IMG/VR virus record: IMGVR_UViG_3300032296_002405
Location: 4,219-68,218 of that record
DNA from: a virus
Length of the DNA: 64,000 nucleotides
Direction: 5' to 3' (one strand)
The notes under the pieces: generated by a model
What the model was told of the DNA's origin: nothing
Seen by the model: the letters and a program-made list of their open reading frames with translations, nothing else
Databases searched by the model: none
Translations under genes and position numbers: made by a program
In this document: in pieces, positions 3,001 to 35,993 of the stretch
Numbering within the stretch: position 1 is the stretch's first letter
Layout of the letters: each line of letters opens with the position of its first letter

Positions 3001-6000
3001 CTCCTACAAGCGACATGGGTGCTTTGAGGCAGGTTGCAAAGGACATTAAGAACTCTTTTGACAAGGGGGTTGATATTGGCGAATTCTTAGGATATGACAA
3101 CAAAGGCAACATAGATGCCAAAGACCTGTTTGTTAACGAGGATGGAACACCTTTCAATCAGATGTCCTTGTCTAACAAGTTCGTTGATTTGATGAACGGT
3201 GTCGTGTTCGAGTATATAGAAGACACCGAGGATTTCAATAAGTTGAAAAGCCAAGGTATTATAACGGATGATAAGAAGTTGTCAGACTATGAAGGTTATT
3301 TCGCAGTGCTTCATATCCCTGACAATGCATTCACAGGAAAGGCATTCAAGGATAACGAATTGATACTTGATGGCAAGGGTGGGGTTTATTTTCCGATAAG
3401 GTTCAATGACAAAGGTTATTTTTGGGCATCAACCAGTAACGCAGCCAAGTCATTGGCTAATATATTGAATGAATCAAGAATGATGAATCCTGATGGGAAG
3501 ATTAGGATGGCATTGATATCTACCGAACCCAAAAAAATACTTTCATCATCTAATGCATCGACAGGTGTTATGGAGATTCTGTTTTCCAAAGCCTTCGATA
3601 AAAGGGCCAAATTGAAAGAAAGCAATGTTATAGACTCTTATGTTGAGGGAGTGAAAATAGCTAACATTGAATTCATTTCAATGTTTGAGAAAAAGATAAA
3701 GGAAAAAATAGCTAATATAAAAAAGGCTAAAAGTGATGCGTCGCGCATGAAAATGCAGAAGAACCTTTCTGATTTCAAGAAAAAGGGTCCTACCAAAGCT
3801 CCAAAGTTGACCAAGTCAATGAGTGCCGATAATATAAAGGCAATCTTGAACGAATTCTTCAGTCCAGATAATTCATCTTTCAGGGAAAGGGAGGCGTTTA
3901 ACACCATTGTACTGGATTTGATTGCACAAAAAGTAAACAATATCGATAAGGTGGCTTCAGAAAGGTATGGTAAGGAGTTAAGAATTGTGGCCACAGAGGT
4001 ATTATCATTCCTAGGTATGACCAAGAATGCGGTTCGACTGAAGTCAACCGGTGGTAGGTTGTCTGCTGCTAATCTTGTACAAGGATTCTCCGATTTCATG
4101 ATGGAGCCTATGTTGAAGGGTGAGGATAAGAACAAGGTATATGCAATATTGGAAGTTGATTCGGAAGTAGAAGCCGTATCGATAGGTAAAGAGCATGGTT
4201 CTTATGATTATGCTGTAAAGCCTATTGATAAGAAAGCCAAGATTACCCTCAATATTTTACAAGATCGTCTTGATTGGAAGGATAATGTGATTGACCCTGA
4301 GACAAACCAACCTATGGATCCTGAAAGGGCCAGTAATGTGTTACCTACATACGGTGTCTCTCCAAAACCTGTGAAACTTGCCGTTTCACAGATGTCGCTG
4401 TACACGGCAACCATAGACGGGGTTGATGTTGAGTTGAAAGGTATTGATGTGGATGTCGTGAACGGATTCTATTCCCCATTGGAACAAGAGGTGTTCGGCT
4501 CCAAACAGGACAAGATGCCTGCCAAGAAATGGCTTGATAGGTTCAAGGGTCGTGAAGAGGCGAAGTGGACCGGTCTGAATGATTGGCTGGATTCACAGGA
4601 AGGTGCTGTTTCCAAACAGGACATCCTTGATTACATGAAGGAGAACCGTATCGTGGTTTCGGAGGTGGTGATGGGCGCAAAAGATTATAGTCAAAGAATA
4701 AAAGAAATAGAGAATGAAATAGATAAAGAAGGGTATTATTTTGAACTCGACATGGGTGGAGAAGGATATATGTTGCTTAATAAGGAAACTGATGATTTGG
4801 CGGAATATGAAGAATTGCCAGAACGAATACAAGACATGTGGAATGAATATAATGAAATTCAAGGACCTGAATTTAATGCCTATTCAAATATTGGTGGTAA
4901 ATACTCCCAGTACCAACTCGAAGGCGAGAAGGAGAATTACAGAGAGGTGTTGGTGACGTTGCCGAGTAAAATTAAACCATATTCAGTTATTGATAATAGA
5001 GATAATTCAATTGTAAAAACATTTGATAAATATTCTGATGCAGTTGAGTTTATTGAATCAAGCAGATTTGGTGATAACTATGATGTAAAAGAAGATAAGT
5101 CTACAACTTTTCAATCCTCCCACTTCGACGAACCCAACATCCTTGTGCATCTGCGTATGAACGAGCGTACCGATGCGGAAGGAAACAAGGTGTTGTTCCT
5201 TGAAGAGGTCCAGTCCGATTGGGCGCAGAAGGGAAGAAGGGAAGGGTTTGATTTAGATAAAAAACAAGTTGAAGAAAAATATAATCAAGCACAATCTGCT
5301 TTATCACAAATTGAAAACAAAATTGAAAACAAATACGGAAAAGACTGGGATCTTCGTGGTGATATTGATGAAGTACTTTCAAAAGAAGATTATGAAAATT
5401 ATCGAAAAGCAGCAGGAGAACGAGCCAAGTGGGGTAATTTATTAGGAAAAGAATATAAAACAGGAATCCCCACCGCCCCGTTCGTCATGAACACATCCGA
5501 CTGGGTGAAGTTGGCGATGCGTGTGGCATTGAAGGAGGCAGTCAAGTCCGGAGCGAACAGCATCGCATGGACTACGGGCGAGCAGCAGAACGACAGGTTT
5601 GATTTGAGTAAGACGATTGATGAGTTGTTTTATCAACAATTGTCTGATGGTAAAGGGAATTTAATTGATAGGTATTATATAAGGGGTACTAAAAATCAAA
5701 CAAGGTTAATTGAAAAAGATAATTTACAAGCATCTGAATTAGAACAATATGTTGGTAAAGAAGTAGCTGAAAAAATAATTAATGGAGAAACTGAAGGTGT
5801 ACTAAAAGGTATTGACCTCAAGGTCGGCGGCAAGGGCATGATTGGTTTCTATGGGACCGTAACCAAGCCCGGTATCGTAGGACAGGTCGCATCCAAGCTG
5901 TTTGGACAGGAGGTAGTTGCGACTGAAATAAACGGTGTTGAGCAACCATCCGTTAAGGTCACTCCACAGATGAAAGCCGAAGTCAAAAGGGGACTGCCGC

Positions 6001-9000
6001 AGATGTCGCTGATGGGAACACGGATGGTAGTTGAGAAACCAAACGAGCCTACCCTCAAGGCTGCTGGTCTGACACCTTCCGAAGTGGAACAATGGAAAAA
6101 GAAAAACAAGGTATCACAGCGTGAGGGAAGGGTCACCGGTGTTCAGAAATCAGCACAAGATCTTTATGAGGGTAAGATAACCGTATACCAACACATAGCG
6201 AACGTAAGGAAAGAACAACCCGCTAGAACCTATCAGGCCGTTCCACAACTTCCTTCATACAAAGATGTGACATCTTCACTTGCTGAAAATCAAATGGAGA
6301 CAGGTGTGGTGGGTCTGAACAAAGGCATAACACAAGGAACACAAGTAGGAGCAAGACTAGATATACCGTCATTCAATAATTACGGCACTAATGTTGTTTC
6401 AATACACGAAGCTACGGGATCAGGAAAAGCCATAGGGTACGGTCGTACCGCATCATTATCCAATGTTAAATTCAAGACAAGTCCAAGTGCCGCATTGAAA
6501 GTAGCTATGGGCGAATCGAAAGGGACATGGGCTAGGATGATTGGTTCCTGGAATAACGAAAGCGACCAATCAGTAGTTGACCGTGCCAAGCAGGCTATCA
6601 GCAGTGGTGAATGGATACAAATCGGTATCAATCCGTTCCGACACAGTTGGTTTTACAATAGGGCCACTGGTATGCCGGTGATGGAAGCTGCCGAGGTGTT
6701 ACAGGTAGGCAATATGGTATTGGCTAGGGGTGCAAGGGAACTGAACCTGAACAATGCAAAGGACAAGGCTGAATTCGAGGAGACATTCAAAGTTAAACTT
6801 AAAAGTGGTGCTATAGGTCAGTTCTCGCTGATGGGTGAGAGAGATGTCGCCAAGAGGTTGGAGGGGGTGGGCAGAAACAACTATGATAAACTGATTGATA
6901 TATATGTTAAAAACAGAATAAATGGAAGACCATTAAGGATATCAATTCAAGACATGATGAATGAAGAACCTTTGTCGTTAACATTCAACAATGTTGAACC
7001 ATTTTCAAGGGAGCCATATGCGGTTCAATTTTCAGATGGATGGCCAATGGTTAGGTTAACTGATGGAAGATATACTGATGGCGATTTGATATATGAATCA
7101 TGGGATCAATTAATTGAACTAAATAAGGATAATATTGATGAGTATTTTATGGATTTGGAAACAAATCGTGAAATTGATGTCAGGAATGATGTTCGAGTAA
7201 AACAAATTGAAAATAATAGTTATGATTCATTATCTGACATAGGATTTTGGAATAAAGCCACTAAAAATCTGTCAGAATATCTTGGGTATACATCACCTAT
7301 GCAGATGCAAGAGGAAAGTCTGGAAGATGCTGAAATAGCAATGAATTTGACAGCAAAAGCGGTTGATTTATATAATGAAGGTAAAATAAAGACTGACATT
7401 GATTTTTACACAAAAGTTCTTGGTTTGACTAATGAAGAGGCTAAATCTAAAATAAAGAATGTCTCATTTGCAGATGCTTTGTCTCAAATGTATGTTGAAT
7501 CAAAGAAAAGAGGCTCCAATCCTGAACTCGTCAAGGCCGTAGAGGATGCCATAGATAAACCCCGTGGCCAGGCATCGCTGGTCGGCACTCGTGGCATCCG
7601 ACCTACCACTAGGGAGGATGTTGAGGCGGCATTGTCCCGTGGAGACAGGGTCATTGCAACACTTGAGATGGATGATGAGCCTATAGAAATAACCAGCATG
7701 GCTATGGTTGACCGTATCGATCTCGATACGACCGTAATCATTCCGGATGTCAAGGGCAAGATGAAGAAGGCGTTCCCCAACGGTCAGATGTCGATATTCG
7801 CTCCAAGGGGTATGATGAATACCGCTGAAGAGGCAAAGAGGCAATATCCGTATCATCAAATATTGGTAGATATAGGTTTGGATGCGTACCGGAACCAAGG
7901 CATCCGCAACTACGCTTCGTTCGTGACCTATGCGAAACAGTTTGATGCATCCATTAACAAGAACCCTTACATGAAAAGGGTTTGGGAGGATGTGACTCGT
8001 ATCGTGAACGGCAAGAAACCGCTCATACAAAGCGAAAAAGACTATAGGGATTTCCTTATCAAGGAGAACGACGTACCCGTAGCCAATGCGGAAAGGTTGA
8101 AGAAACGCAACTACAAGAGCATGGTTACAAGGACCAAGGGCGCATTGCTTGATTCCAGGGCCGAACTATTCAAGGCGCTATCAGAATCCAGCAACAGGCT
8201 GTGGTCTATTGCCGCCAACTATGTAAATGTAATCGGTGGTATGGGAGCCAAGTCCATATATACTGCTAACTTTTTGGCTGATGGTGTTTTCAAAGGATTA
8301 AGCACCAAGAAGGAATACCTAATAGGTGACCAGATGCAGTCCGAGAGTACGATATTCAACCATATGCTTGTCCGTATCCGTGTGCTGGAGATTCAGCGCA
8401 AGATGCAGGATAAGTTTGATGAGTTCATGGATGTTGATTCAAAAATAAAAGAAATAGAAACAGCCAGTAAGGACTTGAAAATGTATGCCAGGGAAATGGA
8501 TTCACTTGAGAAAAAATACAATAAACTCAAGGACAAGAATACCCAGGAGGCGATTGATATGCTTGATAAGATAAACGAGTATATGGATTCAATTAAGGTT
8601 ACTCAAGATCTGATAAAAAAGGAACATGGTGACTTGAAAGTCGACAAGGATGGAAACTACATCGTTCCATCGGAGTATATAGACACACGTGACAATGTAC
8701 GCAGGTATCTTGACCGGAACAATATGCTTATTCAGGACTCAAATGGTAAGTATTCACTAGGAACATACCAATTCGCAAACAACCTGAACGAACGCACCGC
8801 TTTCAATGAGAATGAGCAGGTGTTGGAACAATACCCAGAATTATACGAAAAACTGATGCAACGGGCCGATGCGTATCACCAAGCCTTCATAACCTTACTG
8901 GATATGCAGAAGGATGCCGGTATGCTATCCAAAGAGAGTTACGATGATATGGTAAAGTACAAGTATGTTCCGATGCGATATATCGGACATATGATTGAGG

Positions 9001-11309
9001 ATATTGTTGTGGGTGATGACTTGAAGATTAACTCCGAGCAGTCCAAACTTATCAAGAGGCTGACTGGTGGTAGCGAGGAAAACATCGACATGGCTTTTGA
9101 TGAGGCATTGAAGTTCCAAGCATATATGGTTGTAAGGGCTATAGCCAAGAACAACGCAATGCAGAAGATATATGAAGCCGCCAAGAGTGAGAACTTCCAA
9201 GGTCCGTTCTATGAGCCAGATGTGACAGGTGTGGATGCCGATGGTAACTTCAAGTATGGAAATTTGCCTGCCGAGGATGCCATCATTTATTTCTTTATGG
9301 ATGGAAAGAAAATGGCTCTTGCTACTTCCAAGGAAATAGCCTCGGCATTCAATGGGTCGAATATGCCCGATCTTGGAATATCAGATGAAGCACTTGGTTG
9401 GGCAATGATGACTATTCCGTTCCGTGCCGTTACAACCAATTTGAACCCTGGTTTCGGACTTGCACAGTTGATTCTTGATATACCACAAGCTCTTCTTACA
9501 AACGAAGCATATTCAAATATAACCACCGGTCTTCCAAGAATCCTGTTCAGGGACTTGAAGCTTCTGACAGGAAAGGGTCTTGGGGAATTGTCAAAACTTC
9601 TTGGAATAGACATGGGATTTGACAAGGAATGGAATGAACTTGCAATGGAGGCAAGGGAGTACGGTGGTCTTATCACATTCACAGGAATGGATAATGAAAC
9701 CATGAGTATCACCCAAGCGGCTGAAAAGGCAATGGATAAGAAATCCAATATGCTTACCAATGCGTTTGCTGCATATAGGGATAAGGTTGAGCAGTTCGGA
9801 ACAACGATGGAGACAGTTACACGACTTGCGGTTTACCGTAAGATGCGTAATAATCTTATATCCGAATACAAGAAAGCCAATAACGGCAAGGCTCCAACAG
9901 GAGAGGACCTTGACAATATCCGTACACAAGCCGCAGCAACATCTTTGAACGTACTTAACTACAATCGTGGTGGGGTAGTCGTAAAAGGATTAAACAGGGC
10001 CTTGGCATACCTCAACGTGGCGTTTCAAGTTCCTTATAGTGTTATCAAGTATGCCAAAAGAAAACCATTTGAAGCCTCTCTTAAGGCTATGGAGGTTGCC
10101 ATGTGGCCTACGCTTGTTCAACTCTTATGCTACCTGTCAATAGATGATGATGATGACAAGGAAAAGTACCTTGAGATTTACAACAACTACAATGAATACG
10201 AAAAGTTCAACTATTGGCACATGTATAATCTACTATGGGATGGTAAGGATCCGGAAACAATGATTGTCCGAATCAAAAAGCCGACAATCCTATTACCCCT
10301 TATCAACTCAACCGAGGTGGCTGTGATGTATGTAGCAACAGGTGGCAAGACCATGTCTCCAAAGGATTATAGTAAAAACCAGTTGCTATCCGACATAGTT
10401 GATATGCAGCCACTTGGTTGGAGTTTGATTTCATCCGTTCCTTTATTTAATGCTTTTGCTATATACGCACTTAACAAAGACTTGTATCGAAATATGGATG
10501 TTGTAAAGAACGAGAAGGAACTATTCAACTGGGAAGAAGGCCAAAACGATCCAAATGTGGGCAAGTTCTACAAGTACGTTGCGGAAAGGACAAAATACCT
10601 TGGCGATAATGACCGTGAGACCCTTGAAAGCATATCTCCAGCCAGGATGGATGCAGCGGTAAAGGCAGCTGTAGGTAACTACGAAACCAACATAACCACA
10701 GCTTTGCCACTTCTTGGTGCTGAAGGATTGCTTTCCTGGTTATCATCAGACTATTCTGAATTCAAGGTCCCGGCACAGACCGACGAAGAGACCAAGTCCA
10801 TCATGGAAAAGGTGTGGGATGGCGTGGGCCTTAAGAAGAGGTTCTTTGCCAAGGTTCCAGAGGTTAACCCACAGATATACAAGAGCATGGAGTTTGAGAA
10901 GAAGATGAAGAATTATCTGAGGGAGGAGATTCGGAGCATGGTGGATGTCATCATCAGTGAGAAGAAAAGTATTGATGAAACCAAGCAGATGATACGTGAA
11001 TACTATAAAATGGTTTCACAGGACAATCAGTATTACGATATCGAAAATCTTGATTCTGACCTAAAAAATGCTTTCAAATACGTAAATAATCAGAAATGGC
11101 TGAAAGACAAACCGAAATGGTATAGAACACTCATCTTCGCTCCCGATACGGAATCTAAAATTATGATATTCGATGTCAGTACGGAAAACATGGATCGTGA
11201 GGGTAAGAGACAGGCACTCAAAGATTTGTATCTAAAAGGATTTGTCAAGGAAGGTGATGATGCGTGGATTAAGTATGTAGAAAAAGAATTCCCAAAACAG
11301 GGTAAATGA
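3..11309 (+). CDS. Giant polyvalent virion/ejection-type protein (>3700 aa, 5'-truncated): Gly/Ala-rich hydrophobic N-region, zincin-like HExxH metallopeptidase, several internal modules, LPD38-like C-terminal region
   Basis: Frame is open from base 3 (INPAKWDKF...) through the annotated TTG at 123 to TGA 11309. Motifs: GAGAATGAAVGSVIPGAGTAAG hydrophobic stretch; ILYHEATH; SSHFDEPNILVHLR...LFLEEVQSDW module; LNYNRGG...LAYLNVAFQ typical of phage large polyvalent proteins. Confidence 0.8.
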   Translation: MNPAKWDKFLEKYPGSQKVEKKKEPTPSVKQPTGAVSERGLPPTQPISGSKPSQGKGFEGMPGGYVWAGGAVTPPPTPIPTPKKKKEIYQEDSDNVLMNAIKRGLNQADLAAQMTATGGDPTMKINEEIARIQRENRQLKSSEAYQKFNNATTTKEAWAALTESPTSFATILAELSLESLTAQAKHGLIRAGAGAATGAAVGSVIPGAGTAAGAGVGILTGLGLASLNLEYSGKMLEVFDEMGFDTTNPLELEKAFSDEKKVDEARNTALRKGIPVAVFDMVSGGLAGRIATKPAKSLLGKVATEATEIGTQAGLGMAGEATGQVVAGEKINPAAILAEGIGELGPGTAEIIGGRVYRKIAQPKTPKEAVSTIVAAASPNADKAALVKDQIDLSLMSGEIDDAQAVEYANEAIKAIESDKSVPLQIEGIKRVDVLPIIIDKSDVQNEISQLEKQKETTDAAFHPMIDTEINTRRTRIDELTRQIQSILTAPTEVAPTTAPAAPVTETDRIRTQILDEIFKDSTAQNKADALEQRMNNAEEISMTEINDVLDGLYGQVETIMDNYFDNEAGKQYAQALLDKIDKIKSYEFATDKETAVVTERKAVQTARASLQETASVINLARAPRATATITSEDGTTGTYSIEVGPDGAVTFEQPNTEPIRIGNVNDVNKTASIVETVLNEQGLPQSVSFSITGEDGRKHTITVEAGKKLKPQQLLDLAINIRANELGTVDPADFDTAYEEVTREITTTKPKTDAVQVETAGQVPVQPEAGTRQEMAEGKPQAEPQAPTKEGVKEEVTAPKKQSKADKLNELQNQLIRAKINSRIPNILKALQSVGVKIEIIEDPAEYDRIMRDEYGNNYISAGVYVAESGKIYLNPERMIATGEGVKILYHEATHPVLNIIRNTNKPLYDRMVRAMEQAEKASTGKNREAFSKLKKFGEAYEGIGYDESQVNDEKLTELLALIGNGDIDLTKLPKSFTDTVIDFLNQIAKFLGIKARLTPTSDMGALRQVAKDIKNSFDKGVDIGEFLGYDNKGNIDAKDLFVNEDGTPFNQMSLSNKFVDLMNGVVFEYIEDTEDFNKLKSQGIITDDKKLSDYEGYFAVLHIPDNAFTGKAFKDNELILDGKGGVYFPIRFNDKGYFWASTSNAAKSLANILNESRMMNPDGKIRMALISTEPKKILSSSNASTGVMEILFSKAFDKRAKLKESNVIDSYVEGVKIANIEFISMFEKKIKEKIANIKKAKSDASRMKMQKNLSDFKKKGPTKAPKLTKSMSADNIKAILNEFFSPDNSSFREREAFNTIVLDLIAQKVNNIDKVASERYGKELRIVATEVLSFLGMTKNAVRLKSTGGRLSAANLVQGFSDFMMEPMLKGEDKNKVYAILEVDSEVEAVSIGKEHGSYDYAVKPIDKKAKITLNILQDRLDWKDNVIDPETNQPMDPERASNVLPTYGVSPKPVKLAVSQMSLYTATIDGVDVELKGIDVDVVNGFYSPLEQEVFGSKQDKMPAKKWLDRFKGREEAKWTGLNDWLDSQEGAVSKQDILDYMKENRIVVSEVVMGAKDYSQRIKEIENEIDKEGYYFELDMGGEGYMLLNKETDDLAEYEELPERIQDMWNEYNEIQGPEFNAYSNIGGKYSQYQLEGEKENYREVLVTLPSKIKPYSVIDNRDNSIVKTFDKYSDAVEFIESSRFGDNYDVKEDKSTTFQSSHFDEPNILVHLRMNERTDAEGNKVLFLEEVQSDWAQKGRREGFDLDKKQVEEKYNQAQSALSQIENKIENKYGKDWDLRGDIDEVLSKEDYENYRKAAGERAKWGNLLGKEYKTGIPTAPFVMNTSDWVKLAMRVALKEAVKSGANSIAWTTGEQQNDRFDLSKTIDELFYQQLSDGKGNLIDRYYIRGTKNQTRLIEKDNLQASELEQYVGKEVAEKIINGETEGVLKGIDLKVGGKGMIGFYGTVTKPGIVGQVASKLFGQEVVATEINGVEQPSVKVTPQMKAEVKRGLPQMSLMGTRMVVEKPNEPTLKAAGLTPSEVEQWKKKNKVSQREGRVTGVQKSAQDLYEGKITVYQHIANVRKEQPARTYQAVPQLPSYKDVTSSLAENQMETGVVGLNKGITQGTQVGARLDIPSFNNYGTNVVSIHEATGSGKAIGYGRTASLSNVKFKTSPSAALKVAMGESKGTWARMIGSWNNESDQSVVDRAKQAISSGEWIQIGINPFRHSWFYNRATGMPVMEAAEVLQVGNMVLARGARELNLNNAKDKAEFEETFKVKLKSGAIGQFSLMGERDVAKRLEGVGRNNYDKLIDIYVKNRINGRPLRISIQDMMNEEPLSLTFNNVEPFSREPYAVQFSDGWPMVRLTDGRYTDGDLIYESWDQLIELNKDNIDEYFMDLETNREIDVRNDVRVKQIENNSYDSLSDIGFWNKATKNLSEYLGYTSPMQMQEESLEDAEIAMNLTAKAVDLYNEGKIKTDIDFYTKVLGLTNEEAKSKIKNVSFADALSQMYVESKKRGSNPELVKAVEDAIDKPRGQASLVGTRGIRPTTREDVEAALSRGDRVIATLEMDDEPIEITSMAMVDRIDLDTTVIIPDVKGKMKKAFPNGQMSIFAPRGMMNTAEEAKRQYPYHQILVDIGLDAYRNQGIRNYASFVTYAKQFDASINKNPYMKRVWEDVTRIVNGKKPLIQSEKDYRDFLIKENDVPVANAERLKKRNYKSMVTRTKGALLDSRAELFKALSESSNRLWSIAANYVNVIGGMGAKSIYTANFLADGVFKGLSTKKEYLIGDQMQSESTIFNHMLVRIRVLEIQRKMQDKFDEFMDVDSKIKEIETASKDLKMYAREMDSLEKKYNKLKDKNTQEAIDMLDKINEYMDSIKVTQDLIKKEHGDLKVDKDGNYIVPSEYIDTRDNVRRYLDRNNMLIQDSNGKYSLGTYQFANNLNERTAFNENEQVLEQYPELYEKLMQRADAYHQAFITLLDMQKDAGMLSKESYDDMVKYKYVPMRYIGHMIEDIVVGDDLKINSEQSKLIKRLTGGSEENIDMAFDEALKFQAYMVVRAIAKNNAMQKIYEAAKSENFQGPFYEPDVTGVDADGNFKYGNLPAEDAIIYFFMDGKKMALATSKEIASAFNGSNMPDLGISDEALGWAMMTIPFRAVTTNLNPGFGLAQLILDIPQALLTNEAYSNITTGLPRILFRDLKLLTGKGLGELSKLLGIDMGFDKEWNELAMEAREYGGLITFTGMDNETMSITQAAEKAMDKKSNMLTNAFAAYRDKVEQFGTTMETVTRLAVYRKMRNNLISEYKKANNGKAPTGEDLDNIRTQAAATSLNVLNYNRGGVVVKGLNRALAYLNVAFQVPYSVIKYAKRKPFEASLKAMEVAMWPTLVQLLCYLSIDDDDDKEKYLEIYNNYNEYEKFNYWHMYNLLWDGKDPETMIVRIKKPTILLPLINSTEVAVMYVATGGKTMSPKDYSKNQLLSDIVDMQPLGWSLISSVPLFNAFAIYALNKDLYRNMDVVKNEKELFNWEEGQNDPNVGKFYKYVAERTKYLGDNDRETLESISPARMDAAVKAAVGNYETNITTALPLLGAEGLLSWLSSDYSEFKVPAQTDEETKSIMEKVWDGVGLKKRFFAKVPEVNPQIYKSMEFEKKMKNYLREEIRSMVDVIISEKKSIDETKQMIREYYKMVSQDNQYYDIENLDSDLKNAFKYVNNQKWLKDKPKWYRTLIFAPDTESKIMIFDVSTENMDREGKRQALKDLYLKGFVKEGDDAWIKYVEKEFPKQGK

Positions 11310-11336: not shown

Positions 11337-11966
11337 ATGGCACTAGAACTCAATGTAAAATTCACAAGGTCAAACGACTATCAGAGCATAGTCGCTACCG
11401 ACCTGACCGGTGTGTACAACGCCTTGACCAATCCAGGCGGTTACGGAGCGCCCAATCCTACGGTTGGATCGTTCACTTCGTTCAACATCACCGTGACGCC
11501 AGCCGACCCGGTAACATTGTTACCAACCGGCACACCTGTAACAGTGAACGCCTATCCAAGCCTTCCCAGTTCCTCAAACGGAACTTTTACTATCACCAAT
11601 GTCGACTTGGGGTTGGCCGCTACCGATAACATCATAGACGGTGTGTATCTGTTCAATGTTTCAGCCGAGACAGCATTGGCCGAATACGAATACCAGCGAT
11701 ATGCCGTATTCAGTGATATCGTTGCATGTTGCATCAAGAACCTCACCTTGCAGGCCTTCGGATGCGATTGCAACGGAAAGAACAAGAACCTTGTCAAGGC
11801 AAATATGTGGCTGTCTCTTTTGAAGCCATCGGTTGACGACTCAGGGGAAATCATCCCAAGCCAGGTAGAACTGTGCCAGCAATGGAACCAGGCCGCCGAA
11901 ATCATCAGGGAGCTTCAAAAAATATGTAACAACAATAACTGCAAGGGCTGTGGCGAATGTAAATAG
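11337..11966 (+). CDS. Hypothetical virion protein, Thr/Pro-rich beta N-domain and Cys-rich C-terminus
   Basis: 209 aa ORF, own promoter, overlaps next gene; GGYGAPNP motif; CCxK, CDC, CKGC. Confidence 0.7.
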   Translation: MALELNVKFTRSNDYQSIVATDLTGVYNALTNPGGYGAPNPTVGSFTSFNITVTPADPVTLLPTGTPVTVNAYPSLPSSSNGTFTITNVDLGLAATDNIIDGVYLFNVSAETALAEYEYQRYAVFSDIVACCIKNLTLQAFGCDCNGKNKNLVKANMWLSLLKPSVDDSGEIIPSQVELCQQWNQAAEIIRELQKICNNNNCKGCGECK

Positions 11967-20437: not shown

Positions 20438-20527
20438 TGTCGGTTGGCGTAAACGAAAATGAATATCGTCTGAGGGTAACGCCCCTATTAACTTAGGGAG
20501 ATGCGGGTTCGACTCCCGCACCGACAA
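20438..20527 (+). tRNA. Atypical tRNA-like element (enlarged D-loop, non-canonical anticodon loop)
   Basis: Acceptor TGTCGGT/ACCGACA, T-arm GCGGG-TTCGACT-CCCGC, D-stem GCGT/ACGC, anticodon-position stem CCCTA/TAGGG with a 6-nt loop; no encoded CCA. Confidence 0.6.
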
Positions 20528-20656
20528 CTAATCATGCGGAGAATAATCATCGTATTCTACGCATAACTACGATATTGGCGCTACGCACCCTTTGGGGTAT
20601 AATGAATGATAAATCAGCACTAACAGTACCCAAATGGGTGTAAAACCAATGCCCCT

Positions 20657-24126: not shown

Positions 24127-24798
24127 CTATTCACGTTGTAATAACCTATAGACCGATCCGTTACTCCACCTACCCTTTCCAGATGGAGTGCCAAATCCAC
24201 CCTCGTTAAGCCTCTGAACAATCACACGAATCTTCGCTCCGTTCTGATGCAACTCACGGGCGTAGTTAATTGCCCTTACATTGTCAGGATTCTTTTTACT
24301 ATCACGAATCCGCACTTCATTAGCCAACATCCGATACTCCTCAAGCCAAGGCTTTCTGCCACCATTGGGATTCGATACGCCAAGCATCTTACCCCTCTCC
24401 TTGGCACTCTTGAGCGCACCCTTGGTTCGTATGCTTATCAACTCCCTCTCCCTCTCGGCAAAGGCAAAGAACAATGTCAACATGAACTTGTCAGGCTCTC
24501 CGGGAAGGTCGCAGAACCTGATCCTCCCCTTGAGCCTATCAAGTATGTCCAACCCATCCTTCGTGCTTCGTGTCAACCTATCAACCTTAGCCACCACCAA
24601 GACCATATCGTGCTTGAGACAATACTCAATAGCCTCGGCTAATATCGGTCTATCTTGGATGTTCTTGCCCGACCTCACCTCCACAAACTCCCTATGGATG
24701 TCGGGATAAAAGTGCTTGACTATATCCCTCTGAGCCTGTAACCCCAGTCCCGAATCCCCTTGCCTTTTCGTACTTACCCTTGCGTAGAGACAATACAT
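24127..24798 (-). CDS. Small serine recombinase (resolvase family) with C-terminal DNA-binding domain
   Basis: YARVST catalytic Ser, SGLGLQAQ, DRLTR, ERELISIRTK, LNEGGFGTPSGKGRW. Confidence 0.9.
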   Translation of the reverse strand: MYCLYARVSTKRQGDSGLGLQAQRDIVKHFYPDIHREFVEVRSGKNIQDRPILAEAIEYCLKHDMVLVVAKVDRLTRSTKDGLDILDRLKGRIRFCDLPGEPDKFMLTLFFAFAERERELISIRTKGALKSAKERGKMLGVSNPNGGRKPWLEEYRMLANEVRIRDSKKNPDNVRAINYARELHQNGAKIRVIVQRLNEGGFGTPSGKGRWSNGSVYRLLQRE

Positions 24799-29235: not shown

Positions 29236-29478
29236 TTATTTGTTAGAGTTTATATGTTCCACTATATCGCTGATCCGTTCGACCGACATCCCAAAAACGA
29301 ATTGCCCACTCTCGAACTCTCGTAGGTAACCGTATCGCATAACATCGGTAAGCACTTCGTATCTGCCACCATCTATGATGATGCGATGGTTCTCTCTTTG
29401 GATATCCAAGTTCGGCAATGCCTTGCGTAATTCGATAACCGCATCCAACTCGTATCCTTTGCCTATGTACATACTCAT
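29236..29478 (-). CDS. Hypothetical early protein
   Basis: 80 aa, SD GGGGAGGT, ATGA overlap. Confidence 0.65.
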   Translation of the reverse strand: MSMYIGKGYELDAVIELRKALPNLDIQRENHRIIIDGGRYEVLTDVMRYGYLREFESGQFVFGMSVERISDIVEHINSNK

Positions 29479-30176
29479 TTCGATACCTCCCCTCTCACTA
29501 CAAAACCACTCTTGTCTGCCTTGGCTTTGCCCTTTGCCTTCAGTCCAATGATTACCCCATTGTTGTGCATCATAACATCATCGGCAATGTCCCCATCTAT
29601 AACCTTGTAGCCTTGGTATTCACTCGGCAATGGCTTTGTATGGTCAAACACAACTGCGACATTCACTCCCATAGCAAGTGCCTTTTTGCAATCGCTCCAA
29701 TTGTTCTCTGAACGAGAGAATGTTTGCACATACCGAGTGCCTTGGTATTTCTCAACCTTGCCGATTTGCTTTGTGTAGTCGTAAAACTGAATGTTGGTCA
29801 TCTCTTGGAGCAAGTCCACATTCAGCCTCTGCTTAACGATTCCGAACCAATCCAAATCTGATGTGCCGTTCAGTCTAACTTCCACAGGCTTTCCCTTGGA
29901 GTTAATCTTGCGAAGTTCTGCTACGAGTTGATTCAGGAATTCCTCTCGTTTCAGAAGGTAGTAATCGCTCTTGGAAATCCTCGCCCTCTGCACCGAGTTG
30001 AATGCTCCTCTGCCACTTGTGTTGAGGCAAACCGAAATGCACCCTTGGGATGCTTTTGGGCATAAGTTCACACCCTTGGAATTCAGAGTGAATGGTGCAA
30101 GGTAGAGAATGTAACTCTCCAATGTGTTCTTGCTTGTCTTGGCATTCGTAGTGCCTTTGCTGAGAATGGTTTTCAT
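29475..30176 (-). CDS. Gp88-like protein (Cys-motif, radical-SAM-like phage family)
   Basis: NLCPKASQGCISVCLNTSGRG, VRLNGTSDL, QFYDYTK, TFSRSE, VIDGD, IIGLKAKG. Confidence 0.75.
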   Translation of the reverse strand: MKTILSKGTTNAKTSKNTLESYILYLAPFTLNSKGVNLCPKASQGCISVCLNTSGRGAFNSVQRARISKSDYYLLKREEFLNQLVAELRKINSKGKPVEVRLNGTSDLDWFGIVKQRLNVDLLQEMTNIQFYDYTKQIGKVEKYQGTRYVQTFSRSENNWSDCKKALAMGVNVAVVFDHTKPLPSEYQGYKVIDGDIADDVMMHNNGVIIGLKAKGKAKADKSGFVVRGEVSK

Positions 30177-30218
30177 TTGTCTTGATTCGGTTCACCTACC
30201 CACCGAAAGGTTTAGTTG
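30177..30218 (-). promoter_or_regulatory. Leader motif copy A (predicted H-type pseudoknot)
   Basis: AACTAA-ACCT-TTCGGT-GGGT-AGGT-GA-ACCGAA-TCAAGACAA-ATG. Confidence 0.55.
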
Positions 30219-30219
30219 C

Positions 30220-30855
30220 CCACCATTGGCTGTCCGACAGCGTACACCTATAGCAATGAAATAGGTCACGGCTAGTGCCGTGTCTCGTTCGTAGGTTTCA
30301 CCCTACAATGGTGGCTAATGATTGATTTTTCCAGAGCATAATTGCCACATACTATTGGGGACTGCTACCCAACATCCCCTCTCTCGCAGAGGGACATCAG
30401 AGGTGAAGTGTGTTTAGCCTTTCTACGATTCGTGCATCAGCCTTGTCCAATCTAACGGAATAGCGATTTCCGAGTGAGGGATATGGGATTCCCTCGTGGG
30501 GTGATGACTATCGGAACTACAAATTCCGAGCGTATTTATACCGACACAATGACTCCTACGGAGGGCAAGTAAGCATACACCTATCCCTCTATGTTCATTG
30601 TGTCCACATCGAAGACACCTTGGTCAGTTCACAACAAGCCACACTAGACCGAACTAGGCATTTTAGCACTCTGCTTCCATTCGCTTCCTATCTCACGACA
30701 GTACCTTGGCAAATTACTCGCTTCCGAGTTGTGGCTATCATTTCAAATTACCCTAAAACACTCCTTGTGTGGTGGGTCGGCTTCGTTACACACATCTACG
30801 AGCGATGCGTAATGGTAACTACCTTATGCCATAGTTAATCCGATTGATTAACGAT
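30220..30855 (-). ncRNA. Candidate large structured non-coding RNA (~640 nt)
   Basis: No ORF of 60 aa or more on - strand; more than 14 hairpins and three long-range multibranch closers; G-U pairs and a GNRA loop favour the - strand; promoter-like boxes immediately upstream. Confidence 0.65.
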
Positions 30856-30962
30856 TACAAAGATGGGGGTATAAACATTTGTTAATACCCTATACATAAA
30901 TTTTTATTTAATTGGTTTACAACATATTACAAAGATGTTGTCCCAATATAAAACATTATGTT
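30854..30962 (-). promoter_or_regulatory. Tandem early promoter-like boxes with AACAT-n-TGTT operator-like sites
   Basis: CATCTTTGTAAT (- strand) twice, at 30854-30865 and 30926-30937; AACATTTGTT 30874, AACATTATGTT 30952. Confidence 0.5.
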
Positions 30963-30981
30963 AAATAGATTCGGCGTGAAT

Positions 30982-31398
30982 TCACCAAGAGTCATCCCAA
31001 ACCGATTCAATATTGGGATGTATCATAACCCAAGTTGGGACTCGGAGAGCAATGGACATAGTGGTAAGATAAGTTAATTGAACTGACCTTTTGTAGCCTC
31101 CGTATGTTATGCCCTTCCTACTTACATTGATGCCGACCTTTGCCAAGTCCCTAACCAATTGGGCAACATTAGAACCCCTTCGGTATGCAAGATACTTGAT
31201 GTTGTAACGAAGTAATGCCATATTTGAATCTAGATGCTCTAAAACATCATCTCTCAAAGTGGGTGAAAGTTCAAAAGACTTTCCATTAGTGAATCTTGGA
31301 ACTGCATTGGGTTTTCGGGTGAATCTTGCCTTTTGCCTATGCCCTCTTTTGCTCCCCAAAGTTTCAATTTTGGCACTAACTGCTTCGGCTTCGCTCAT
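30982..31398 (-). CDS. Putative HTH DNA-binding protein with basic N-terminus
   Basis: LRYNIKYLAYRRG-SNVAQLVRDL...LTTMSIALRVPTWVMI resembles an XRE fold; -7 boxes at 31470-31477 and 31543-31550. Confidence 0.5.
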   Translation of the reverse strand: MSEAEAVSAKIETLGSKRGHRQKARFTRKPNAVPRFTNGKSFELSPTLRDDVLEHLDSNMALLRYNIKYLAYRRGSNVAQLVRDLAKVGINVSRKGITYGGYKRSVQLTYLTTMSIALRVPTWVMIHPNIESVWDDSW

Positions 31399-31555
31399 GT
31401 TTCAACTTTGCCTGTACTGGTTTGTGTCATGTTCCATATCTCTAACCACCGATAGAGAATTGGAACAAGCAAATATAACTTCTTGATACATAACTTTTTG
31501 CATTGGATTTTCGCTTTCGGTTTGGGTTAGATTTGATTTTGTCAAAGATACGCAA

Positions 31556-31670
31556 ATACGCGCACATATACGCGCGTGTGTGTGTGCGTGATCGCGCGCG
31601 TACCCGGGGGGGTGTGCCTGGGCGCGCGTGTGCGTACCCGTGTGTGGTATGTGTCTCCACCTGTCCCCGG
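31556..31670. repeat. GC-rich alternating purine-pyrimidine tract with G-run (possible packaging site/genome end)
   Basis: CGCGCGTGTG at 31571 and 31623; GCGTACCCG at 31598 and 31632; CCGGGG/CCCCGG inverted pair. Confidence 0.55.
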
Positions 31671-31685
31671 CAGAAAAAAAATTTT

Positions 31686-32006
31686 GTGGTAACGTGGTAA
31701 GGTGTGGTAAGTAGAAAATGTTACATACTTACCACGCCAAACGCATTGATATGTAATATATTATATACTTTGTGGTAAGGTGGTAAGTAAAATTCATTAA
31801 TTAGTATATATATATATATAAAATACGCATATATACATATATAGTTGATAATCAATAACAGTTGGATTTATTGAAAAAAAAATATTTTGTTCCGGGTAAT
31901 TTATAGGAAAGTACTTACCACATTACCACAAATTGGCTTTTTAGAACGGAGGTGATTGATTATCAGGCTGAAAAGTGTGGTAAGTGGTCTTACCACATCT
32001 TACCAC
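31686..32006. other. Probable replication origin: 11 GTGGTAA iterons in both orientations around an AT-rich core
   Basis: GTGGTAA at 31686, 31694, 31704, 31772, 31780, 31977; TTACCAC at 31729, 31915, 31923, 31990, 32000; (TA)n tract near 31805-31820; next to primase-helicase 3' end; strand skew flips here. Confidence 0.75.
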
Positions 32007-34115
32007 ATTATAGCACTTGACCATGGCTGGTCCTTTCCGTTTTGTTTTGGGATCGCCGAATAGTTTACGGAGTTCGATACCGAACTTGGCCATATGTCGT
32101 ATTTGTTGTTTGGTATTGATTTCTATTTCATTTTTTATTTCGGTGGCGGTGAGCCAGTCGATGTGTCCTGATCCGTCGGGGGGGTAGAAGAATTGGAGGA
32201 TGAGTTCTCGTTCGTAGCAGATGGAGGTAAAGTCATCGGACACATCTCCGAGTTGATTGACCTCGTCGGTGGACAGGAGCCATGTTTCGCCTGATGCGTA
32301 TGCGTGGTAAGCTTCCATGAAGAGTTCCACTCGGTCAATGGCATTGATACGATTGAAGTCTATCGACTCCACTTTGATTGGAAGGATACGGGTATTGCCG
32401 GTCGGGTCGGATATGACTTCGTTAGGGTTGGAAGTACCGCACAGGACGGCTAGGCGTTTGTAGTCCATGTTGTCCCGGCGGTATGGCGCTCGGAGGGAGA
32501 AGGTGTCTTTGGAGGTAAGTTCTTTGAGGCGTTTCTCGTCTTGTTTGGATTTGCCACCCATTTCGTCGTCCATGACAATGAGTTTCTGGCACATGAGCAG
32601 TTCATCGTCTTTGCCTCGGTCGAGTTTGGATTCTGCGTAGTACGACCGAAGGGAGTTAGGCAGTAGCCGACGAAAGAACTCTGTTTTGCCGTTGTATTGG
32701 GGGCCGGTGAAAACGAGCATGGACCGCACGGGGTATCCGTCTATGGCGGCGTGTATGCCGATGAGCCACTTGCGTATCCAGTTGGCGGCGTGTGGGGTAT
32801 TGGTACGAACGCAGGAGATGAGGGCATCGATGACACCGGTTGGTTGTACCGATTGGTGTTTGGCGATGAACTCCTTGATGGGGTGGTAGGTGGGGGTTTG
32901 GTTGGAGAACAGTATGGTCTGGACCAGGTCCTTGGTGACGTTGGGTGTGTTGAACACGGCTCTGGCGTTGAGGTAGATGTCGTTGATGTCTTCTTCGAGG
33001 AGGGCTTCGCCGGAGCGGGATTTCTCGAGTTTGTGGGTTACGGCGTTTCGTTTGACCGGGTACTTGGTCTTGATGAACATGATAAGGCCTTCGATCAGGT
33101 GTTCGGGGTCTGAGGCGAGGGTGGCCAGGGTCACATCGGGTCGGGACTGTACGCTCCGTGCGATGGATTCGGCTTGTGTGGTTGACAGGTCGCCTCTGCT
33201 GGACAGTACGGATGCCACGTCTTCGCCCGATGCCTTGGCTGTTGCGGCCAGGGTTATGAGATCTCGGTTGGTCTTGGGCAGTGTCACGCCTGCCTGTTTG
33301 AGCATGTGGTAGAAGGTTCCGATGGTGACACGGCGTCCGGTGGTGTCACGGCGCAGTGCGATGGAGTACTGTCGGTCGGCCTGCTCGGTGGAGTACTTGG
33401 CACTCATGGAGCAGAGCGAGTGGAAGTGTGAACGGCCTGACTCGCCCAGTTCGTCGGCCAGGGCGAAGGAGAGGTTGAGGTAGTCTTCGTAGGATTCGGC
33501 GATGCTGACTCCGGATGCTACGGCGTCGGATACGAGTTGGCTGATTTGGTCACCGGTGTATACGATGGGTAGGGACTTGGGTACTACTACACGGCGTGCC
33601 TTGGTCTTGGCTGTTCGGCTGGACTCGTTGACGACCAGGTCCGGGTCATACGATACGAACCGAAGTGATACGATGTTGCGTGGTTTGGAGTCGATGACTA
33701 CGCCGTAGGTGTCGAAGTAGTATTGTTGGAGCCAGTCGAAGGATTCGTTGTGTTTGTCGGGTTTGACTTTGACCATGATGGCCACGCCTTGGCGGCTGAC
33801 CGAGTCGAACAGGGCGTAGGTGTACGGGTCCAGTGCCAGTGCGGTTCGGTTGCATTCGGTGTCGATGTCGATGCAGATGAATCCTGAGTGTTTGACCAGG
33901 GACGATTGGTTGCGTTTGGTGAACACGCCGCTGACGGTCACGCACGGTACGGATCGTTTGGCGGTGTCGCGGGAGTCCTTGTCCTCACAAGAGCGGACGG
34001 CTTCGACTTGTTCGGCCCATTTGCCGTTGCGTATGCCATCGAGCAGTTCGCTGATGGCGAGCATGGCTGATGGTTCGGTTGCGTATGCGTTTGGGAACAG
34101 GGATATTTGGCTCAT
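31941..34115 (-). CDS. Primase-helicase: BT4734-like/VirE-N domain, PriCT-2, VirE/VapE P-loop ATPase
   Basis: TVSGVF...HSGFICIDID; FHSLCSMSAKY...TIGTFYH (PriCT-2); Walker A GPQYNGKTEF, VMDDE, RAPY, DPTGNTRIL. Confidence 0.85.
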   Translation of the reverse strand: MSQISLFPNAYATEPSAMLAISELLDGIRNGKWAEQVEAVRSCEDKDSRDTAKRSVPCVTVSGVFTKRNQSSLVKHSGFICIDIDTECNRTALALDPYTYALFDSVSRQGVAIMVKVKPDKHNESFDWLQQYYFDTYGVVIDSKPRNIVSLRFVSYDPDLVVNESSRTAKTKARRVVVPKSLPIVYTGDQISQLVSDAVASGVSIAESYEDYLNLSFALADELGESGRSHFHSLCSMSAKYSTEQADRQYSIALRRDTTGRRVTIGTFYHMLKQAGVTLPKTNRDLITLAATAKASGEDVASVLSSRGDLSTTQAESIARSVQSRPDVTLATLASDPEHLIEGLIMFIKTKYPVKRNAVTHKLEKSRSGEALLEEDINDIYLNARAVFNTPNVTKDLVQTILFSNQTPTYHPIKEFIAKHQSVQPTGVIDALISCVRTNTPHAANWIRKWLIGIHAAIDGYPVRSMLVFTGPQYNGKTEFFRRLLPNSLRSYYAESKLDRGKDDELLMCQKLIVMDDEMGGKSKQDEKRLKELTSKDTFSLRAPYRRDNMDYKRLAVLCGTSNPNEVISDPTGNTRILPIKVESIDFNRINAIDRVELFMEAYHAYASGETWLLSTDEVNQLGDVSDDFTSICYERELILQFFYPPDGSGHIDWLTATEIKNEIEINTKQQIRHMAKFGIELRKLFGDPKTKRKGPAMVKCYNVVRCGKTTYHTFQPDNQSPPF

Positions 34116-34223: not shown

Positions 34224-34472
34224 CTATGAGTACTTAAAAATAATTTCATTGTATTTTTGAAGGAAATCCTCAAAAGAGTTTATATGGATAAAACTAACAT
34301 TATCCATATTGTTTGATCCGTTATCGATAACCCAGTAAATTTCTATTGGTATATCTATTCCAGTAATCCTTACATTGATATTTGATACAACTTTATTACT
34401 ATTTGAATTCCAGGCCGTGTGGCCATTATCAATAAGGTGTTTTATTATCGATGATTTTAGATTTTGCATCAA
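34224..34472 (-). CDS. Degenerate VRR-NUC-like paralog (AT-rich)
   Basis: Aligns by eye with 35269..35718 (IxxxLxxxGHxA...SFEDFLQKY vs TFDDFYEKY) but lacks the catalytic D and ExK. Confidence 0.45.
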   Translation of the reverse strand: MMQNLKSSIIKHLIDNGHTAWNSNSNKVVSNINVRITGIDIPIEIYWVIDNGSNNMDNVSFIHINSFEDFLQKYNEIIFKYS

Positions 34473-35151
34473 TTATAACTCTATTTACTATTATTTTTTT
34501 CTTTCTTGCAATGTAATAACATTTAATACACCTAGTACTATTTTTATATATAATAGAATCGCAATCAATACATTTTTTAAATATAAATTCTCTAGTTTTT
34601 TTTCTAATATTTTTAAAATCTAATCCATGTACTTTACCATGGCAATTTATACATAATGTAATACCATTATCTATGTCAAATCTTTTTTCAATAGATACTG
34701 ACCATGGTATTATATGATGAGCTTCAAGATTAATATTCGAGTTGCAATGTTTGCAATTATAATTATCCCTTTTTAATACAGCATTCCTCCATTTGTATAT
34801 TTCCCTTGAATATTTTGATCTTTTATTTGTATTGTATTTTCCTCCTTTCCAAAAATTAGACTTTTCCCCTTTTAATCTTTCAGATTGGGCGTCATTTTGA
34901 CATTTTGATGAGCAGTATTTATTTCTATATCTTTTTTTTTCACCATTTAATTGCCATTGGTTTCCACATCTTTTACAGTTTTTATATCTGGGTTTTATAT
35001 TGTGTTTTTTGCCTATCCTTTGATTAGATTTGTTTTTGTTTTGGCATTCTTTTGAACAAGTAAATACTCTGTTTTCTTTTGATTTTTGTATATCAAAAGA
35101 GGCATTACATACCTTACAGTTTTTTATAATTCTGTTTTTTTTATTAAACAT
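34429..35151 (-). CDS. HNH endonuclease with Zn-ribbon repeats
   Basis: NFWKGG, WRNAVLKRDNYNCKHC...LEAHHIIPW...DIDNGITLCINCH; very AT-rich. Confidence 0.9.
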   Translation of the reverse strand: MFNKKNRIIKNCKVCNASFDIQKSKENRVFTCSKECQNKNKSNQRIGKKHNIKPRYKNCKRCGNQWQLNGEKKRYRNKYCSSKCQNDAQSERLKGEKSNFWKGGKYNTNKRSKYSREIYKWRNAVLKRDNYNCKHCNSNINLEAHHIIPWSVSIEKRFDIDNGITLCINCHGKVHGLDFKNIRKKTREFIFKKCIDCDSIIYKNSTRCIKCYYIARKKKIIVNRVIIDAKSKIIDNKTPY

Positions 35152-35718: not shown

Positions 35719-35993
35719 ATGTCGTCTTTACACCATATCGGGGTTTTCTCTCCTACGTATGATCCGTGTACGTTGTAGTAGAAGTATTCGATTGCATCTT
35801 CCTGGTCCATATCACGGCAAAGGATTTCGATACATTTGGATACGCTATATATAAGGCGCATGCTGTTTTCTTCGATGCCGATGATGGCTTCATTGAATCC
35901 GTCGGCTTTGAGTATCTCTTCTTCCGGAAACCATTCGAGTATGTACTCAAGCATTCCTTGTGGTTCGTCCGGTCCTATTTTGAATTGGTCCAT
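35715..35993 (-). CDS. Conserved phage hypothetical protein
   Basis: ADGFNEAIIG...DAIEYFYYNVHGSYVGEKTPIW; promoter TATTTTTG at 36010-36017. Confidence 0.75.
   Translation of the reverse strand: MDQFKIGPDEPQGMLEYILEWFPEEEILKADGFNEAIIGIEENSMRLIYSVSKCIEILCRDMDQEDAIEYFYYNVHGSYVGEKTPIWCKDDI

Follow-up and report, generated by a model that had tools for sequence, protein, structure and literature searches.

A candidate structured RNA of about 0.65 kb ahead of a GP88-family gene in a presumed phage of freshwater Bacteroidota

The non-coding stretch ahead of the GP88-family gene

The DNA analysed here, which we refer to as the window, is 64 kb long and corresponds to positions 4219-68218 of IMG/VR record IMGVR_UViG_3300032296_002405, a virus record of 68,218 bp that has direct terminal repeats. 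A block of minus-strand genes runs from about position 35993 down to 21976 of the window. Inside this block, between a gene for a protein of 138 amino acids (aa) and a gene of the GP88 family (gp88 hereafter), lies a non-coding region at about 30219-30853. A preliminary description, made from the sequence, had proposed that about 640 nucleotides (nt) at this place specify a large structured RNA. We describe here the evidence for such an RNA, its predicted shape and transcription, and the readings that compete with it.

The claim that this stretch holds no credible open reading frame (ORF) agrees with our counts. The minus strand has no ORF of at least 30 aa between 30195 and 30982, and no ORF of at least 25 aa is present on this sense strand over 30270-30926. 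The segment 30196-30619 is the longest stretch of the window without any ORF of at least 50 aa, both strands counted. The genome had been called otherwise gap-free, which slightly overstates the case, since a second gap (31399-31940) lies about 400 nt away. The G+C content of the region (0.465-0.495) exceeds that of its upstream flank (0.32-0.345 at 30800-31100), as had been noted. A search of the whole window with cmscan against Rfam gave no match at the gathering score, and a scan of 29900-31200 with expectation values (E) up to 10 returned nothing but rox2, STnc350 and Antizyme_FSE, whose scores of 15.5-18 bits fall far short of the cut-offs. The earlier impression that signatures of group I and II introns and of tmRNA are absent also holds: no intron family appeared at E up to 10, and ARAGORN found no tRNA or tmRNA in the region at 100% or 90% of its thresholds, with only poor calls at 80% and 70%. 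An intron interrupting a gene was rejected, as no core model matched and both flanking genes are whole. The region is a member of no Rfam family, and it is neither a relative of tRNA or tmRNA nor an intron. A description of such an RNA was not found in a limited search of the literature, in which supplementary files stayed unopened; publication elsewhere is possible.

Related DNA was found in contigs from four freshwater metagenome runs, here called X2, X3, X4 and X6. All of these are DNA contigs; among runs on record as RNA none turned up with this sequence, which is uninformative about expression. X2 has no coverage over 29400-30109, and uncovered parts were left out of the evidence. Three X2 contigs show no difference from the window over 30136-30644 (509 nt). 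The flanks of X2 do differ, at 4 of 82 positions in 30772-30853 and at 13 of 72 in 30994-31065. X3 has 11 differences in 382 nt at 30189-30570, compared with 33/204 and 16/125 in gp88. X4 differs at 9/264 and 10/158 positions of the region, and in gp88 at 31/230, 23/157 and 32/261. Except in X6, conservation of the region equals or exceeds that of the gp88 coding sequence. X4 and X6 are the more diverged lineages, about 7-13% different. X6 has 63 other letters in place of 30503-30599, one X4 contig is unlike the window before 30600, and the X6 insertions between 30786 and 30817 sum to 10 letters, which is no multiple of three.

Some of these contigs hint that the element is a self-contained cassette between a promoter and a short hairpin of the 5' untranslated region (5' UTR). 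In three X3 contigs the 37-nt hairpin at 30182-30218 runs straight to a TATCTTTG box about 14 nt away and the 635-nt cassette is missing, and in an X4 contig 30185 is followed by the start of another gene. The sequence upstream of gp88 in X3 and X4 also differs from that in the window. The 37-nt hairpin, which ends 5 nt before the A-rich start region of gp88 and occurs once in the window, may itself be a portable 5'-UTR module. These observations on modularity are hints only, because short metagenome contigs could derive from other loci of related phages.

The preliminary description was right that a gene of the GP88 family lies just downstream. The partnership that it had suggested between the RNA and the gp88-like protein finds no support: when the gap was compared by blastn and nhmmer with 65 loci that carry relatives of gp88 (at most 58% aa identity), no real match came up, so that none of the 65 has a similar upstream sequence, and X3 and X4 differ there as well. 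In three annotated phages the gp88-like gene is preceded either by small genes of an ordinary kind or by a short spacer. On these 65 loci and three phages we rejected a general link to gp88. Wider searches did not find the region either. The same programs run against the gp88 loci and 80 loci of primase relatives (at most 51% aa identity) gave matches only to the other gap or of 20-27 nt in length, and a distant-homology blastn search of 50,697 phage records gave no match to the region. Exact-pattern scans found no stretch in viral contigs, and two scans of genome contigs found none either. A degenerate pattern of junction and loops returned seven stretches in viral contigs, and none of them matched a covariance model of the five-way junction described below; the single match in a scan of metagenome contigs (L147) is a chance match of 23 nt inside an ORF of 786 aa. 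Across 99 loci the junction model itself, built from the single sequence, scored no better than E 0.25, with matches on the strand that does not fit the orientation of gp88, and it had no match in 50 whole related virus records. The collections searched may omit the records closest to the window genome, and a lack of near relatives there is uninformative. So far, one narrow clade of uncultured freshwater phages is the only place where the element has been seen.

Hairpin domains, strand and compensatory changes

The three inverted repeats that had been proposed as closing helices of multibranch domains are exact (30220-28/30306-14, 30543-52/30595-604 and 30637-43/30730-36), and all the smaller hairpins listed with them are found in the sequence. 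Stability was measured on the minus strand, segment by segment, against 200 dinucleotide shuffles each. The segments 30216-30318 (z -4.0) and 30536-30610 (z -4.33) were more stable than all of their shuffles (0/200 as good in both). Marginal values were obtained for 30451-30535 (z -2.14, 5/200) and 30741-30860 (z -1.9, 7/200). The statement that the region is tiled with helices thus holds beyond chance for two of the six segments, is marginal for two and fails for the remaining two. The 640-nt core as a whole has z -3.2 (20 shuffles). The whole 805-nt gap reaches z -6.3, a value to which palindromes in its AT-rich promoter part contribute; coding stretches of the same length, three in number and taken as controls, had z -0.4, -2.4 and -2.0. 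Thermodynamics by themselves would not carry the claim of a structured RNA.

We discarded the minimum-energy fold computed globally for the 805-nt gap, since differences in X6 and X4 break most of its long-range pairs. Nor do three closed multibranch domains hold, since the third of them is no more stable than shuffles. For these two reasons the region is shown as a chain of independently folding, local hairpin domains and not as a single globally closed fold. The domains are collected in Table 1. The five-way junction is the best conserved part, and 30216-30270 is without a listed difference even in X6. Several stems share their letters: GAGGG/CCCUC occurs three times, in the hairpin 30377-93, in 30476-95 and in the variable domain, and CGGAA/UUCCG twice, in the hairpins 30511-29 and 30456-72, which are 74% alike and lie 56 nt apart. 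An exact 8-nt complement between 30476-83 and 30582-89 permits mutually exclusive pairings.

The hairpins are kept through matching double changes beyond what controls give. Of 248 variant differences 40 are listed, and the pair analysis rests on the 39 of these that lie inside the region. The pair model is the local minimum-energy fold of the window sequence alone (186 pairs). Fourteen model pairs are touched by listed differences. Six of them are altered on both sides with pairing kept: 30271/30278 (C-G to U-A), 30422/30436 (A-U to G-C), 30426/30432 (G-C to C-G) and 30459/30469 (U-A to C-G), all in X6, the swap 30647/30654 (C-G to G-C in X4 and X6) in the hairpin 30644-47/30654-57, and 30789/30815. 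The other touched pairs are one changed on both sides and broken, one changed on one side and kept as G-U, and six changed on one side and broken. The broken double pair, 30272/30277, lies in a hairpin that also has two X6 insertions and whose arms are complementary again by eye. When partners were slid by 1-3 columns, 0-1 double-kept pairs were obtained. None of 5000 random placements reached six (mean 0.27), and none of 644 rotations reached seven doubly changed pairs. The covariation test called for by the preliminary description is positive on these listed differences.

The strands are unequal. The model of the minus strand contains 22 G-U pairs and that of the plus strand 8 (among 165 pairs), and folding energy is lower on the minus strand in five of the six segments. 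The difference is pronounced in 30536-30610 (6 G-U pairs against 1), and the hairpin with the GUGA loop in 30637-30736 has a G-U pair that is valid on the minus strand only. A variant change at 30666 turns C-G into U-G and keeps the pair on the minus strand only. Because of this asymmetry, the energies, the 30666 change and the position of the flanking genes on the minus strand, an RNA of the minus strand is favoured, which is the orientation deduced earlier from G-U pairs.

Predicted transcript and possible roles

Tandem promoter-like boxes had been noted just upstream of the region, and a 12-nt box, CATCTTTGTAAT, is present there twice. Both copies are exact, where 0.58 would be expected in the window at up to one mismatch, and they are 72 nt apart, each beside a palindrome. 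Their first eight letters, CATCTTTG, match the flavobacterial sigma-A consensus TAnnTTTG, which comes from Flavobacterium psychrophilum, at seven of eight positions. According to the available part of the source, this -7 box sits at -12 to -5 in F. psychrophilum, where the 5' UTR has a median length of 24 nt (mean 65 nt) and 64 structured 5' regions are described (PMC9723704). With the -7 box occupying -12 to -5, a start is predicted near 30853. The likeness between X2 and the window stops exactly at 30853, and in the differing sequence past this point a perfect TATCTTTG, read in reverse complement, stands at the equivalent place; the loose ends of X3 carry perfect TATCTTTG in reverse complement as well. 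The minus strand has no terminator-like site over 30177-30860, and the RNA would therefore most simply be the head of the gp88 transcript. The predicted leader of about 675 nt far exceeds the F. psychrophilum median given in that part of the source. TAnnTTTG boxes also lie close ahead of the start codons at 11337, 23413, 24112, 35993, 42545 and 53285, with box ends 5-17 nt away, which suggests that many transcripts of this phage have very short leaders or none.

We give even chances to the reading that 30219-30853 specifies a real, selection-maintained structured RNA of the minus strand, about 635-675 nt long, which forms the leader of the gp88 transcript and acts in its own right. Transcription would proceed from a Bacteroidota-type promoter, with the -7-like box at 30865-30858 and a second box copy upstream, and the RNA would be the untranslated head of a transcript continuing into the GP88-family gene. 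It would be built from a 5' hairpin, hairpins that share stems, a variable domain that relatives have swapped and a conserved five-way junction at its 3' end. It might be a platform on which a protein of the phage or the host is bound in several copies, whether as decoy or as scaffold, and we favour this over a switch for gp88. An RNA acting in its own right is favoured because the element is modular, is identical between strains with diverged flanks and contains repeated hairpins with the same stems. That the role is trans-acting and protein-binding is our guess, with control in cis as the main rival. A bolder proposal can be put forward only tentatively, and we hold it to be rather less than evenly likely: the element may be the founding member of a new class of RNAs of about 0.65 kb in freshwater Bacteroidota phages, autonomous, exchanged and parked behind a promoter, with the junction and the repeated hairpins binding a host or phage protein in several copies in trans (as anti-defence decoy or assembly scaffold), independent of the genes behind.

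Several observations weigh against an RNA of this kind. The comparative set is thin, with four runs and at most three or so lineages, and the 3' part of X6 is no better conserved than gp88 (37/287 against 74/603). The segments 30319-30450 (z +0.7) and 30611-30740 (z 0.03) fold no better than their shuffles, and the 300-nt windows of the region have z about -1.9 and are not outliers among the 74 windows per strand. Half of the touched model pairs (7/14) do not survive in the variants. The listed differences show no preference for loops: 19 of 40 fall on unpaired positions, which make up 42% of all positions. Two of the six compensatory pairs are common to X4 and X6, and therefore each probably represents one event. 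Template switching in DNA hairpins can also give double changes in perfect inverted repeats. Distant homologs were not found in the searches described above, hence there is no covariation at the level of a family. The five-way junction has no G-U pair and is therefore uninformative on the strand and on RNA versus DNA. Promoter, start and read-through into gp88 are based on motifs alone, with boxes in the window that match at only 7/8 positions, and these motifs are not enriched across the window (ATCTTTG 15 against 13.5 expected, TAnnTTTG 52 against 49 expected).

The strongest competitor is a leader that acts in cis, controlling elongation, stability or translation of its own operon; we regard it as unlikely, though still a serious candidate. 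It might modify the polymerase as HK022 put RNAs do, or use alternative stem pairings as in the P4 leader. The place directly behind promoter-like boxes, with no terminator-like site before gp88, speaks for it, and the recurring stem letters together with the 8-nt complement would suit switching. Promoter-proximal control works for any following gene, so the modularity fits too, and flavobacteria have dozens of structured 5' regions, as the count cited above for F. psychrophilum illustrates. However, about 635 nt is several times larger than known leaders of such kind, and the region matches no cis-regulatory family of Rfam. An expression platform was not found, the minus strand over 30177-30860 having no terminator-like hairpin, and across the 15-kb gene block terminator-like sites show no clear excess (17 against 12.1, standard deviation 3.6). 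The 509 nt of X2 that are identical beside differing flanks also exceed the conservation usual for a spacer-like leader. An element acting at the level of DNA is improbable. Here the inverted repeats would be protein sites, or priming or recombination signals near a replication origin, and indeed most of the supported stems are perfect Watson-Crick inverted repeats, the junction among them; compensatory changes would preserve a DNA hairpin equally, and a probable origin lies about 420 nt away, beside the primase-helicase gene. The inequality of the strands, seen in the G-U pairs, the energies and the 30666 change, makes such a role less likely. Beyond the two hairpins that are 74% alike the region has no iterons or repeated binding sites, no piece of it recurs elsewhere in the window, and origin-like features are concentrated in the other gap.

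The region might also have no function of its own and be DNA exchanged or inserted recently, for instance a decayed gene or what is left of a mobile element. Its low divergence would then come from recent transfer, and hairpin-templated mutation, instead of selection, would keep the hairpins. The cassette-like presence and absence, the sharp breaks of likeness at 30218, 30600 and 30853, the identity of X2 over 509 nt beside diverged flanks, as after recent recombination, and homologs found among near relatives only would all fit. We nevertheless judge this quite improbable. The ends carry no terminal inverted or direct repeats, a second copy is absent from the genome, no transposase or homing endonuclease is adjacent, there is no intron signature and the flanking genes are whole. 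Moreover, X4 and X6 keep the hairpins through six double changes at a divergence of about 7-13%, which indicates time under constraint and not a recent arrival. That the region codes after all, for small proteins or through another genetic code or frame, deserves hardly any credence. Short plus-strand ORFs of 31, 37, 32, 72 and 27 aa exist, yet the sense strand lacks ORFs as described, the 72-aa ORF (plus strand, 30620-30838) has no Pfam match at E up to 1, the X6 insertions do not preserve a frame, and the remaining genes of the window are normal reading frames under table 11.

Compared with known systems, the region would be a new RNA family within a known broad kind, which we rate as that of large structured phage RNAs or long leaders. 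To our knowledge, very few large structured RNAs are known in phages, with functions mostly open, and ROOL and GOLLD are the only well-known precedent for phage RNAs so large. The available parts of the literature describe ROOL and GOLLD as large ornate RNAs that often occur in phages and prophages (10.1101/2024.12.08.627333; PMC5737381). The region shares with them the size class of about 0.6-0.8 kb, the many hairpins, the non-coding nature, the location in a phage and a function that is open. It differs in that it matches neither Rfam model even at E up to 10, has no adjoining tRNA genes (the sole tRNA call is 10 kb away) and shows no sign of one ornate fold, the long-range pairs of its global fold being contradicted by variants; the host group is also another one, the phage being of Bacteroidota type.

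In the leader of satellite phage P4 a processed piece pairs with two other leader sites and stops transcription. Like this leader with its CI RNA and like the c4 RNA of P1/P7, the region would be a long structured untranslated operon head in a replication region with repeated complementary segments. The likeness is one of layout only, as the region has no Rfam match, no terminators were found in it and the host phylum is another. The put RNAs of HK022 are two stem-loops of about 70 nt that cause processive antitermination by modifying RNA polymerase. They too are promoter-proximal folded RNAs indifferent to the following gene. In contrast, the region is about 635 nt long, and the downstream terminator-like sites are not clearly enriched. 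ColE1-type RNA II is a structured non-coding transcript of about 550 nt with its own promoter close to a replication origin. The region would resemble it as a structured RNA with a promoter of its own near a probable origin, but would be transcribed away from the iterons and the AT-rich, origin-like part and into protein genes. The structured 5' regions of flavobacteria, Flavo-1 included, agree with it in host phylum, in the TAnnTTTG type of the candidate promoter and in the predicted position of the RNA between start site and gene, as far as the available part of the source extends (PMC9723704); about 675 nt here stand against the median of 24 nt there, and Flavo-1 gave no match. If our reading is correct, a Bacteroidota phage spends 1% of a 68-kb genome on a folded RNA despite usually short leaders. 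It would then be a new large RNA from another host phylum, one whose core is compact and conserved and in which a domain can be swapped, and would be tractable in experiments. Were it only a leader, it would still be unusually long for the phylum.

Surrounding genes and the second gap

Table 1. Positions in the window of the predicted cassette, its parts and nearby features.
Feature	Position	Strand	Basis and remarks
Structured RNA cassette body (candidate), about 635 nt	30219..30853	-	Folds, conservation, compensatory changes, strand asymmetry, no ORF, no known family
5'-terminal hairpin, arms 30831-40/30846-55	30827..30859	-	Inverted repeat and fold; start of predicted transcript
Hairpin domain with compensatory pair 30789/30815 (G-C to A-U, X4 and X6)	30779..30823	-	Insertion-rich in variants
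Third domain of the preliminary description: 7-bp closing helix and three hairpins	30637..30736	-	Sequence, fold, variants
Variable domain: 10-bp closing helix and inner hairpin with G-U pairs	30543..30604	-	Fold, variants
Three hairpins, 30511-29, 30476-95, 30456-72	30456..30529	-	Repeats, fold
Weak hairpin with two compensatory pairs	30416..30442	-	Inside segment 30319-30450, which has no shuffle-beating stability
Two hairpins, 30355-72 and 30377-93	30355..30393	-	Sequence, fold, repeats
Five-way junction: 8-9-bp closing helix, four hairpins, all Watson-Crick	30220..30314	-	Inverted repeat, fold, variants
37-nt hairpin module	30182..30218	-	Between cassette and gp88 start codon; loose ends at 30182 and 30218 (the latter in three X3 contigs)
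Upstream 12-nt box CATCTTTGTAAT, candidate promoter P1, with -7-box-like CATCTTTG	30926..30937	-	Overlaps palindrome 30919-28/30932-41
Downstream 12-nt box CATCTTTGTAAT, candidate promoter P2	30854..30865	-	-7-like part at 30865-30858
TAnnTTTG boxes near start codons	11322-29, 23418-25, 24118-25, 36010-17, 42532-39, 53273-80		
GP88-family gene, 233 aa	29475..30176	-	First gene after the RNA; Pfam PF17338 E 5.6e-33; PHROG 1617
138-aa gene, family-less	30982..31398	-	Upstream of the region; terminator-like hairpin at its end (30988-30971)

The best named relatives of the primase-helicase gene (31941-34115, minus strand; VapE-like, PriCT-2 and BT4734-like domains) are in Cellulophaga, Nonlabens and Flavobacterium phages, at 27-34% identity. 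A protein of 1939 aa contains a crAss muzzle-protein domain (E 7.9e-29), and near-identical DNA is found in runs labelled mostly as freshwater metagenomes. From these three lines we infer that the source is a phage of freshwater Bacteroidota. The ORF downstream of the region alone covers positions 6-229 of the 230 of the GP88 profile, and the gp88 protein has no relative in the PDB.

The 138-aa protein has only seven relatives among 5.8 billion clustered proteins, at 63-81% identity and all on short metagenome contigs. The ORF has its own stop codon and aligns end to end with these seven. No Pfam, PHROG or NCBIfam family matches the protein, and it has no relatives among viral contigs. Its matches in the PDB are designed repeat proteins, with no stretch passing alone, and its AlphaFold model, with a mean predicted local distance difference test (pLDDT) score of 48.5, is too poor for a fold search. 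The conserved C-terminal half looks like a helix-turn-helix by eye only. A TATCTTTG box at 31550-31543 (minus strand) is a possible driver of this gene.

The second non-coding gap, at 31399-31940 right after the primase-helicase gene, is probably a replication origin. It contains iterons of the TTACCAC type, repeated in either orientation, as well as a long alternating tract rich in AT and a low-complexity run rich in GC. Within and just beyond it, 31701-32000 is the most structured 300-nt window scanned, with z -6.4 and -7.4 on the two strands. A piece of 71 nt (31772-31842) is 77% identical to positions 3085-3150 of an unrelated IMG/VR contig (L146), just after the primase gene there (E 2.7e-4), and possibly represents a shared origin element.

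Elsewhere in the same minus-strand block there are a free-standing HNH endonuclease gene (34429-35151) and a gene for a small serine recombinase of the resolvase type (24127-24798). ARAGORN calls a 91-nt tRNA-Gln (CUG) at 20438-20528 where the Rfam scan of the whole window at the gathering score reports no tRNA; this may be an odd tRNA, an intron-bearing tRNA or a false call. A protein of 665 aa has no relatives among viral contigs. An ORF of 3768 aa or more, cut off by the start of the window (3-11309), has weak matches to the L5 gp82 and LPD38 "polyvalent protein" domains. The gene for the 1939-aa protein with the muzzle domain lies at 55537-61356, and the phage may be a distant crAss-like podovirus.

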